Shown: piece after piece, positions 53,952 through 56,963 of the stretch
Layout: each line of letters opens with the position of its first letter
Numbering within the stretch: the first letter of the stretch is position 1
NCBI GenBank assembly: GCA_047617745.1
Contig: JBLGBN010000003.1
Location: 1-59,353 of the forward strand
Source: Candidatus Nanohaloarchaea archaeon
GTDB taxonomy: Archaea; Nanohalarchaeota; Nanosalinia; Nanosalinales; Nanosalinaceae
Reading direction: 5' to 3'
DNA: 59,353 nucleotides
Program-made: the position numbers and the translations under genes
Notes under the pieces: model-generated
What the model saw: the letters and a program-made list of their open reading frames with translations, nothing else
Database searches by the model: none
Told to the model about the DNA's origin: nothing

Positions 53952-54230
53952 CTAGGCGCTCGGTCCTTTGAAGTATCCGTCTTCGTCATTATCTGTGTTC
54001 TGGAACACTTCATCTTTATCCAGTGTTTCCTCTACTTCGTCTTCCCGGGTTTCCTGTTCTGTCTTGGTTGGATGGAAGGCTGGCTCTACGTCTTCAGTAT
54101 CTATTTCCTCCAGTTTCTGGAAGGTTGAGAGAATGTTTTCAAATTCTCTGGCGAACTGTTCTGCCTCACCTTCTTCCAGATTGATCCTGGCGTTCTCGGC
54201 GATGTCTTTCACTTCTTCAGCTTCGACCAT
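53952..54230 (-). CDS. gatC: Asp/Glu-tRNA amidotransferase subunit C
   Basis: IAENARINL, IDTEDVEP, RED and GYFKGP. Confidence 0.9.
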   Translation of the reverse strand: MVEAEEVKDIAENARINLEEGEAEQFAREFENILSTFQKLEEIDTEDVEPAFHPTKTEQETREDEVEETLDKDEVFQNTDNDEDGYFKGPSA

Positions 54231-54399
54231 ATCAGAAACTTGGATCGGAAATATTTAGTAACTGTTTGAAACAGGCATAAGTTTGCCGCATGAACTTTCC
54301 GTGAACAGTTCTGAACAGAAGCTGTTCGGAAACGATGAACATTGTTAATCAGTGAGTTGTAGCAAAGATTTATAAAGGAGCTAAGTAAATGTTAGGATA

Positions 54400-54545
54400 A
54401 GCTTGAAACATTCGTCTTTGGGCGGACGAATACGAAGCGACTGATTGACATTTGACTCGTTTGGGCGCGAGTCGACTCGGATTCAAATTGGGCTTTGAAT
54501 CCAAACGTATTGGGCATTCAAGTTGGGCTTGAATTTGGACTAACT
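54400..54545 (+). ncRNA. putative structured RNA / leader with repeated UUGGGC-loop hairpins
   Basis: Four hairpins with different stems but the same loop; TTTATAAA at 54369-54376. Ends approximate. Confidence 0.6.
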
Positions 54546-54608
54546 TCTATAGGAGAATTAACTATGCCGCTTTAAAAAGGTTAGGCATAGCTGTAACGTG
54601 ATGCTAAA

Positions 54609-55673
54609 ATGGAATCCCTAATAGATAATAACGAGTCCGGAAAAGACGTCGAAAACCTTGACGATGTAAAAGATGCTAGAATCGTAGTTGTAGGAGTCGG
54701 TGGAGCAGGAAACAACCAGGTAACCCGCATACAGAAGAAGGAAGTGCAGGGCGCAGACACCGTAGCAATCAATACTGACAAACAGCACCTCGAAATGGCT
54801 TCAGCAGATCGAAAAATCCTCGTAGGAAAAGACCTGACAAAAGGTCTTGGAGCAGGAGGAAAACCTGAGAAAGGTGCAAGATCAGCTGAAGAGAACCGAG
54901 CCGAACTACGATCAATCTTCAAAGATGCAGACATGGTCTTCCTCACAGCAGGAATGGGAGGAGGAACAGGTACAGGAGCAACCCCTGTCCTTGCAGAGAT
55001 CGCAAAGAAAGAAGACTGCATCGTGATCGGAACAGTAACAATGCCTTTCGAGATTGAAGGAGCAAGAATGAGCAAGGCAGAAGACGGGCTCTACAGACTA
55101 AGACAGCACGTCGACACCGCAATTGTAATTGAAAACGACAAACTACTGGATATCGCAGGCGACATGCCTCTGGACCAGGCCTTCGGAGTAGCAGACGAAC
55201 TGATCACTACCATGATCAAAGGCGTCACAGAAACAATCTCCAAGCCAAGCCTCGTCAACCTTGACTACGCAGACGTCCAGGCAATCATGAACCAGGGAGG
55301 AGTAGCAGTAGTAGGATACGGAGAATCAGACACCAAGAACAAAGGAGAAGAAGCAATTCACGAAGCACTATCCAACCCGCTACTCGATGTCGAGTTCGAA
55401 GGAGCAAACGGAGCACTGCTACACGTAGCAGGAGGAGACGACCTAACACTTAACGAGATCAACGACGTAGGTCAAAAAGTCAAACACCATCTCGACAGCC
55501 ACGCACAGGTAATCTGGGGTGCAAGAGTAAAAGAAGAACTACAAGGAAAACTCCAGGTAATCTCAATAATCACAGGCGTCGAATCACCGTACGTCCTCGG
55601 AGAAGTAGAAGAGGAACAGGAAACAGACGTCTCAGGAGATGTCAACGACCTGGGAATCGAGGTAATCGAATAA
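54609..55673 (+). CDS. ftsZ: cell division protein FtsZ (FtsZ2-type)
   Basis: GVGGAGNN, GADTVAINTDKQHL, GMGGGTGTG and NLDYAD. Confidence 0.96.
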   Translation: MESLIDNNESGKDVENLDDVKDARIVVVGVGGAGNNQVTRIQKKEVQGADTVAINTDKQHLEMASADRKILVGKDLTKGLGAGGKPEKGARSAEENRAELRSIFKDADMVFLTAGMGGGTGTGATPVLAEIAKKEDCIVIGTVTMPFEIEGARMSKAEDGLYRLRQHVDTAIVIENDKLLDIAGDMPLDQAFGVADELITTMIKGVTETISKPSLVNLDYADVQAIMNQGGVAVVGYGESDTKNKGEEAIHEALSNPLLDVEFEGANGALLHVAGGDDLTLNEINDVGQKVKHHLDSHAQVIWGARVKEELQGKLQVISIITGVESPYVLGEVEEEQETDVSGDVNDLGIEVIE

Positions 55674-56399: not shown

Positions 56400-56456
56400 A
56401 GGCTAATTACCGGTATCTGTTCAACTATTTAATTGTTGGTCGCGTCATTTTCCTGT

Positions 56457-56963
56457 ATGAAGGCTCCAATATGTAACGTATGCTTAAAGAGCGAGGACGA
56501 GCTCTGCAGCATGTGCGAAGACAAGTTTGAAAACGGCGAAATCACGGAAACCGACATTGAGGTCTCAAGAATTCTACACAACCTCAGCAAGGAACACGCC
56601 TCACTGAAGGACTCAGAAATAATCAAAACATTCGAAGCAGAAAACGTAGTAGTAATAGCGACCGCAAAAGGCGACGGCGCAAAAGTCGTCGGTAGAAGCG
56701 GAGAAATCGTCAAGAAAGTAGCAGATGAAGTAGGCAAATCAATCAGAGTAGTAGAGAAATCAGAGGATGATCTGGAGACAATTAAAGGGTTGCTTAGTCC
56801 TGCAGAAGTTGAATCCGTCAACACAGTCTTCACGCCGGAAGGGCAGGAGAAAAAGATCGTTGTCAGCGACGAATACGAAGGCAAGATCAACATCTCCGAA
56901 GAAGAGTTCGAAGACATAATTGAGGGAATAACCGGCACCAAGTACCGGCTCTCCTTCGAGTAA
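56457..56963 (+). CDS. NusA-like KH protein with N-terminal zinc finger
   Basis: MKAPICNVCLKS...LCSMCE and VVGRSGEIVK GxxG. Confidence 0.85.
   Translation: MKAPICNVCLKSEDELCSMCEDKFENGEITETDIEVSRILHNLSKEHASLKDSEIIKTFEAENVVVIATAKGDGAKVVGRSGEIVKKVADEVGKSIRVVEKSEDDLETIKGLLSPAEVESVNTVFTPEGQEKKIVVSDEYEGKINISEEEFEDIIEGITGTKYRLSFE

Follow-up and report, generated by a model that had tools for sequence, protein, structure and literature searches.

Cis-regulatory RNAs known from archaea are few, and we know of none described for an archaeal cell-division gene. The closest designs come from elsewhere. The bacterial sponge RNAs CsrB and RsmZ carry many hairpins with unrelated stems, each presenting one short G-rich loop word, a design suited to many copies of one protein. 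The animal transferrin-receptor (TfR) mRNA bears in its 3' UTR an array of iron-responsive elements (IREs), hairpins that have a CAGUGN loop and a C bulge. In the tRNA-mimic operator of Escherichia coli thrS and in T-box leaders, the loops of leader hairpins resemble, or pair with, the anticodon loop of a tRNA. As for the control of ftsZ2 itself, PMC7439475 reports that in other archaea the gene is preceded by a small regulator gene, cdrS, with which it is co-transcribed, and that the cdrS-ftsZ2 pair is seen in all archaeal clades except DPANN.

Here we describe an array of hairpins with a constant loop directly upstream of an ftsZ gene in a Candidatus Nanohaloarchaea archaeon. The array is real, phylum-wide and single-copy, its stems covary, and it is tied to the ftsZ gene. 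The window, that is, the whole stretch of DNA analysed, comprises 59,353 nucleotides; within it, gatC and ftsZ form a divergent pair separated by 378 nt, and the array sits inside this gap. The features of the locus, together with the second ftsZ gene of the genome, are the following.

53952-54230, minus strand: gatC (Pfam GatC).
54302..54341, no strand assigned: TGAACA/TGTTCA-type repeats, clustered on the upstream side of the distal promoter.
54369..54376, plus strand: distal TATA box P1, TTTATAAA, with a conserved TTATAAA or close variant in relatives.
54410..54431, plus strand: hairpin 1, loop UUGGGC, 8 bp including a closing U.G.
54452..54475, plus strand: hairpin 2, loop UUGGGC, 9 bp including two U.G.
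54479..54502, plus strand: hairpin 3, loop UUGGGC, 9 bp.
54510..54515, plus strand: extra TTGGGC, unpaired and genome-specific.
54516..54534, plus strand: hairpin 4, loop UUGGG, 7 bp with a 5-nt loop.
54546..54556, plus strand: small conserved hairpin, consensus UCUA-N3-UAGA, with 88.1% of cells pairing.
54561..54591, plus strand: A-rich box (A-box, 54571-54578) between inverted arms, its columns invariant in alignment A6.
54598..54603, plus strand: Shine-Dalgarno-like GUGAUG, 5-11 nt before the ATG (read by eye from the sequence).
54609..55673, plus strand: ftsZ, 354 aa (Pfam Tubulin plus FtsZ_C; TIGR00065).
Contig C4, 23509-24552: second ftsZ paralog, after an FKBP-like ORF with a gap of about 90 nt.

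The four hairpins can be read directly in the sequence at the places given in the preliminary description of this DNA, with the qualification that hairpin 2, present as reported, has a slightly longer span (54452-54475, not 54454-54473). The TTGGGC at 54510, a TTGGAC at 54535, the TATA box at 54369-54376, an AGGAG at 54551 and the sequence ATG-CCG-CTT-TAA at 54564 are likewise all where they had been placed. The idea that the last of these forms a mini-ORF led by the AGGAG had to be given up, since an ATG occurs there in only 9 of 45 same-family sequences.

Several smaller observations concern the make-up of the array. Hairpins 3 and 4 (54479-54534) have almost identical stem letters, so that the minimum free energy (MFE) fold pairs the arms of one with the arms of the other, and hairpin 4 is probably a local duplicate of hairpin 3. 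Among relatives, three to six hairpins are found per leader, and growth seems to proceed by local duplication. The extra TTGGGC at 54510 is absent from the same-genus loci L001, L003 and L004, and also from the RNA contig described below, which differs from the window at 54507-54515. The linker between hairpins 1 and 2 (54436-54446) holds a single-stranded ACWGAUC-like word that is conserved in relatives too and that resembles the Shine-Dalgarno-like GGNUGAU directly before the ATG; a decoy, a standby site and a piece of an extended hairpin 2 stem are possible readings. Read by eye, GGNUGAU-like words occupy the Shine-Dalgarno place in most same-family relatives, and GGAGG does so in other families.

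The clustering of TTGGGC before ftsZ is far beyond chance. Five copies, all on the plus strand, fall within 111 nt (54418-54528), and four of the five cap hairpins, while the whole window holds only 10 copies on both strands, fewer than the 19.5 +/- 4.5 given by shuffles. The 834,247-base genome contains 92 copies, both strands counted, and the only other pair on the same strand within 80 nt is a two-copy case inside a gene on contig C7. The folding energy by itself is less telling: for the plus strand the MFE is -43.3 kcal/mol (z -1.80), which 8 of 200 shuffles equal or better, and for the minus strand it is -39.1 kcal/mol (z -4.55). The plus-strand fold is thus unexceptional against shuffles, and energy alone would not single it out. 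The genome from which the window comes (834 kb in 34 contigs, 46% G+C) is 88.6% complete; its 23S rRNA is assembled at C1:10681-13626, no 16S rRNA was found, and just 24 tRNA genes were called in the assembly at this level of completeness.

To describe the conservation of the array, we read the regions upstream of ftsZ orthologs in 62 (a set of 30 loci and a set of 32) of the 70 genomes that make up the set for the phylum and that fall in one order and five families. All 62 regions contain hairpins with a GGGC-type loop word on the sense strand of ftsZ. Under a strict rule that requires a perfect stem of 5 bp or more, and that undercounts the bulged stems of one genus, at least two hairpins with a GGGC, GGGA or GGCG loop are present in 59 of the 62 leaders and at least three in 49, which leaves 13 below three. 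Among the loops, UUGGGC is the most frequent (88), followed by GGGC closed by U-A pairs (36) and CGGGCA (19). An 18-mer of hairpin 2 has 29 matches in the species genome collection, 21 in nanohaloarchaeal or uncultured-archaeon records and 8 in bacteria, the latter number being about the chance level for that length.

The loops of a leader tend to change together. All nine leaders of genera g2, g12 and g18 carry UGGGA-type loops exclusively, and none of the 53 leaders outside these genera has solely GGGA loops. A second kind of joint change occurs in one genome, the only one of family f5 (G028, locus L064), which has three hairpins, each with UUGGCG in place of UUGGGC. In a quick tree built from FtsZ only, two of the GGGA genera group together (support 88) and the third stands apart, so that this tree needs two GGGA changes, although its well-supported branches permit one. 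When all loops of a leader change to one new word, they are likely to be read by a single partner that changes with them; these concerted, lineage-wise switches point to a co-evolving trans factor and constitute the strongest hint as to mechanism.

The stems, on the other hand, vary with compensation. A covariance model (R1) that covers hairpins 1-3, built on 12 relatives that align cleanly, finds 21 of the 30 loci at E<=0.02, every one on the ftsZ strand. In the resulting alignment of 21 relatives (A5), which was itself fitted to the model structure, 92.8% of cells show standard pairing compared with 77.6 +/- 1.1 for shuffled partners, 0 of 500 shuffles attaining the observed level, though these shuffle statistics overstate the significance because the relatives are kin. 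When the partner is slid by 1-3 columns as a control, pairing falls to 21-46%. Changes on both sides are seen at 18 of the 26 pairs among the 21 relatives. In hairpin 1 all eight pairs show them; in hairpin 3 seven of nine pairs covary and 98.2% of cells pair; in hairpin 2 three of nine pairs covary and four never vary, its inner stem CUCG/CGAG being almost invariant. The alignments made with MAFFT only (A1 and A2) misplace hairpin 1 in several rows, and RNAalifold run on A1 recovered just parts of the structure. The check that had been proposed for the array, namely that relatives should show stem covariation around constant loops, thus gave a strong result.

Within its own genome, R1 has one match at E<=10. 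At E<=0.01 it finds a single match in each of 22 out of 41 relatives, and all 22 matches lie on the same strand as an ftsZ ortholog and within about 250 nt on its 5' side. The remaining 19 genomes are more distant, and they are missed because the model is too narrow; the hairpins are visible there by eye. With a single copy in its own genome and in each of the 22 relatives, and with no other cluster of the motif in its own genome, the array does not behave as a dispersed or REP-like repeat. A search of Rfam 15 with the window segment 53900-54900, both strands, returned no match at E<=10, so the array does not fall into a known RNA family there either, and a literature search found no published description of it.

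Which of the two divergent genes does the array belong to? In 27 of 30 loci, the neighbour on the upstream side is gatC. In genome G005, a same-strand ORF is inserted and gatC lies about 1.7 kb off, and in G039 gatC is on a different contig; in both, the array remains with ftsZ and no array is found upstream of the relocated gatC. Since the array tracks ftsZ when gatC moves, a minus-strand leader of gatC is ruled out. The genome carries two ftsZ genes, which score 343 bits (window gene) and 418 bits (C4 paralog) against FtsZ homolog 1 of M. jannaschii. As the C4 paralog is the closer to FtsZ1, the window gene is probably of the FtsZ2 type. Upstream of the C4 paralog lies a short, plain stretch that contains a TATA-like box and no hairpin array.

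A small ribbon-helix-helix (RHH) gene directly upstream, as in the cdrS-ftsZ2 operon, is absent from this locus. Between 54231 and 54608, no plus-strand ORF of 40 aa or more exists, indels among relatives break any reading frame upstream of ftsZ, and the five RHH_1 matches in the genome are all on other contigs. With no conserved ORF there and the RHH genes elsewhere, the hairpin leader therefore occupies the place of cdrS. The lack of cdrS, already remarked upon in the preliminary description, agrees with the distribution given in PMC7439475, in which DPANN is the exception.

To account for these observations, we propose that the array forms the structured 5' region of an ftsZ mRNA made from P1 and that its loops act as multivalent docking sites for one trans-acting factor, a reading to which we give about an even chance of being correct. 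The ftsZ transcript would start from the distal promoter, with its TATA box at 54369, and would read through the array into ftsZ. From about 54400 to the ATG at 54609, the RNA would fold into three to six independent hairpins whose stems would be free to change, each loop showing one short word, UUGGGC in this genome, with a common GG(G) core. The factor docking on these loops would most likely be an oligomeric or multi-domain RNA-binding protein, and it would set the amount of FtsZ through the stability of the mRNA or through how accessible it leaves the ribosome-binding site, which lies about 90 nt further downstream.

The promoter end of this proposal draws on several lines of evidence. In most relatives, TTATAAA or a close variant stands 30-50 nt before hairpin 1, with most columns invariant in alignment A1, and the P1 TATA box is flanked 5' by A-rich, BRE-like sequence, which, by our by-eye reading, points P1 toward ftsZ. 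The TGAACA/TGTTCA-type repeats often read GTGAACAG and, in relatives too, precede the distal TATA box by 30-90 nt; 49 copies occur in 30 upstream stretches of 118 nt, compared with 0.07 expected genome-wide per 118 nt, and the cluster of three or more copies here is one of just two in its own genome. They are probably the operator of a putative transcription factor dedicated to P1. An RNA contig of 1277 nt from a salt-lake RNA library, about 91% identical to the window, bridges 54383-55654 and covers the array and nearly all of ftsZ unbroken. It begins about 20 nt upstream of the expected start site, and RNA libraries of this kind can contain DNA. This one contig is unstranded, and as DNA may be present in the library, it supports the transcription that had been predicted for the array within that limit; in RNA run X1, the gatC side has no cover.

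Runs of T, as would be expected of a terminator, are scarce between the last motif and the ATG: T5 is found in none of the 62 leaders and T4 in six, compared with 12.6% and 34.8%, respectively, of random 90-nt windows of the genome. Because the leaders are kin, this scarcity is no more than suggestive of read-through into ftsZ. Wobble pairs, by contrast, carry no strand signal. The fitted alignment contains 42 G.U cells versus 15 A.C, with 21 of the 42 at two loop-closing pairs. When both kinds of mismatch are treated alike, 147 distinct hairpins yield 25 of the G.U type and 25 of the A.C type. The argument that G-U pairs favour a plus-strand RNA thus holds weakly in the window (three G.U) and fails across relatives. 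The case for a plus-strand RNA comes instead from context, namely the constant orientation relative to ftsZ, the TATA box with its BRE-like flank, the repeats, the absence of T5 and the RNA contig.

The 3' part of the leader is less clear-cut. The small hairpin at 54546..54556, for all its pairing, has no pair with changes on both sides. The helix that flanks the A-box pairs in 70.3% of cells, with a covariation score of 0.188 versus 0.139 for shuffled partners and 0.05-0.12 for slid controls, a modest covariation, and it shows no strand bias (G.U 35 versus A.C 26). An alternative fold of this 3' block (CCUA/UAGG plus CC/GG), judged by eye, was discarded, its 5' arm varying without compensation. 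The A-box itself may be the loop of an RNA hairpin or a second, proximal promoter of ftsZ, the latter being suggested by its distance to the ATG and by the TTATAAA that relative L034 has in its place. The identity of the A-box decides between a leader and a separate sRNA.

This second arrangement, in which an independent sRNA starts at P1, ends before ftsZ and sponges a loop-binding protein while ftsZ is transcribed from the A-box (54571), we consider unlikely, but it is the chief rival of the leader reading. In most same-family genomes, the nearly invariant A-box lies 40-48 nt before the ATG with a Shine-Dalgarno-like word in between, and the TTATAAA of L034 makes a good TATA box. Furthermore, a halite metatranscriptome contains a conserved intergenic sRNA of 266 nt from a nanohaloarchaeon (STRG.4577.1; PMC7002113), and the leaders measure 205-347 nt from TATA to ATG; likened by length alone, the two could be the same RNA. 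Such an sRNA should end somewhere between the array and the ATG, however, where the T5 count is zero; the contig from the RNA library is continuous from the array through ftsZ; and the A-box, again by eye, is without the A-rich BRE-like flank of P1.

If the array is indeed part of the ftsZ mRNA, as we prefer, its loops would have a reader, for which several candidates were considered. A KH/NusA-like protein of 176 aa (56433-56963, plus strand), with an N-terminal CxxC...CxxC motif and an NF005013-like match below cut-off, is encoded about 0.8 kb downstream of ftsZ and is syntenic in 22 of 24 same-family loci. The suggestion that this neighbour is the binder finds no backing in its sequence, since none of the columns in its alignment sets the three GGGA genomes apart from the 19 others and hence no residue tracks the loop switch; it stays a candidate. 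A search for the CsrA domain PF02599 (E<=0.01) gave no match in the genome, an absence that is not proven because the genome is 88.6% complete. Mimicry of a ribosomal-protein site finds no support in the 23S rRNA, where no hairpin with a stem of at least 5 bp shows the loop; the 16S rRNA is unassembled.

A tRNA-like logic offers a different kind of reader. The hairpins could mimic the anticodon arm of tRNA-Pro and be bound by a protein that recognises this tRNA, such as ProRS, or their loops could pair with a loop of a tRNA or other RNA, which would tie division to translation status; we regard this as quite improbable. Outside the array, the genome has one strong UUGGG hairpin, namely the anticodon arm of tRNA-Pro(UGG) (C27:53-127), whose loop is UUUGGGA; the anticodon loop of tRNA-Pro(GGG) on C6 is GUGGGGC. 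Every loop variant retains YGG, the form that Pro anticodons take, and in one relative (L024) stems of 5-6 bp carry the 7-nt loop CUUGGGA, which fits the thrS type of a 5-bp stem and a 7-nt cognate loop. The thrS operator of E. coli is a precedent for an anticodon-arm mimic. However, most loops have 6 nt rather than 7, with C after GGG where tRNA-Pro(UGG) has A, and we estimate that a 6-mer likeness to one of about 46 tRNAs is near chance. In addition, the regulated gene is ftsZ rather than proS, and the complementary word forms no cluster in the genome. Stand-alone anticodon-binding domains are absent from the genome, all four matches lying within long ORFs of synthetase size.

A role of the element as DNA, in the form of palindromes bound by a protein or of extruded hairpins, is very improbable, even though the wobble statistics favour neither strand and the nearby TGAACA repeats show control at the DNA level within the same intergenic region. 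Palindromic operators keep their arms and vary their centre. Here it is the arms that vary, by compensating changes, around an asymmetric centre that stays constant, which makes a DNA-level role unlikely. Moreover, the motif is always on the sense strand of ftsZ: 29 of the 30 upstream regions contain no antisense copy, and the single one, in L010, lies outside the array. Finally, we find it hardly credible that four or more loops pool their GGG runs in a potassium-dependent G-quadruplex acting as a sensor of intracellular salt, for although most leaders expose three to six such runs in loops, the f5 genome has UUGGCG loops without GGG, 13 of the 62 leaders hold fewer than three such hairpins under the strict rule, and the conservation of the flanking U and C, as well as the switch from C to A, would be left unexplained.

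Returning to the multivalent ftsZ leader, a broader version of it can be put forward tentatively, as possible rather than probable: in nanohaloarchaea, which are without CdrS, the array would be a phylum-wide riboregulator, an FtsZ2-type leader whose three to six identical loops are counted by a dedicated, co-evolved factor. Such a factor would explain why all loops have changed together at least twice. It may be related to tRNA biology, for example a reader of tRNA-Pro-like loops, and, if so, it would couple the division of these tiny symbionts to their translational capacity. The array is conserved in every examinable family of the phylum and covaries clearly; the lineages in which all loops have changed together provide a built-in genetic handle, and a hairpin with a six-letter loop is a defined bait for a new archaeal RNA-binding protein. 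In the place of CdrS, the array may show how reduced, host-dependent cells time their division.

In design, the array is like the Csr/Rsm sponges and the IRE arrays, yet it is a member of no known family. With CsrB and RsmZ it shares the many hairpins of unrelated stem and single G-rich loop word, suited to many copies of one protein. Its loops are UUGGGC, CGGGCA and similar words, not (A)GGA; GGA occurs only within the UGGGA of three genera, no Rfam Csr/Rsm match was obtained, and no CsrA/RsmA partner was found in the 88.6%-complete genome. The array is furthermore archaeal, and it lies in cis before one gene with which it is probably co-transcribed.

T-box and thrS leaders differ from it in that the array has three to six equal hairpins, not one specifier, and in that the downstream gene encodes no aminoacyl-tRNA synthetase; for a T-box, we found no Rfam match and no terminator-like T run, and the array tracks ftsZ, not gatC. 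To the IRE array it is alike in combining a constant loop with variable stems in the untranslated region of a single mRNA, and the IRE case, in which one protein reads the hairpins and sets the fate of the mRNA, resembles what a binder would do here. The loop sequence and the organisms are unrelated, and the position differs as well, the TfR hairpins lying in the 3' UTR and these upstream of ftsZ. With the transcriptional control of ftsZ2 by CdrS/CdrL, in turn, the array shares the place directly upstream of an FtsZ2-type gene and the same would-be target, the amount of FtsZ2; according to PMC7439475, CdrS is a small ribbon-helix-helix protein encoded upstream of ftsZ2, and at this position the nanohaloarchaea have instead a structured RNA with no conserved ORF.
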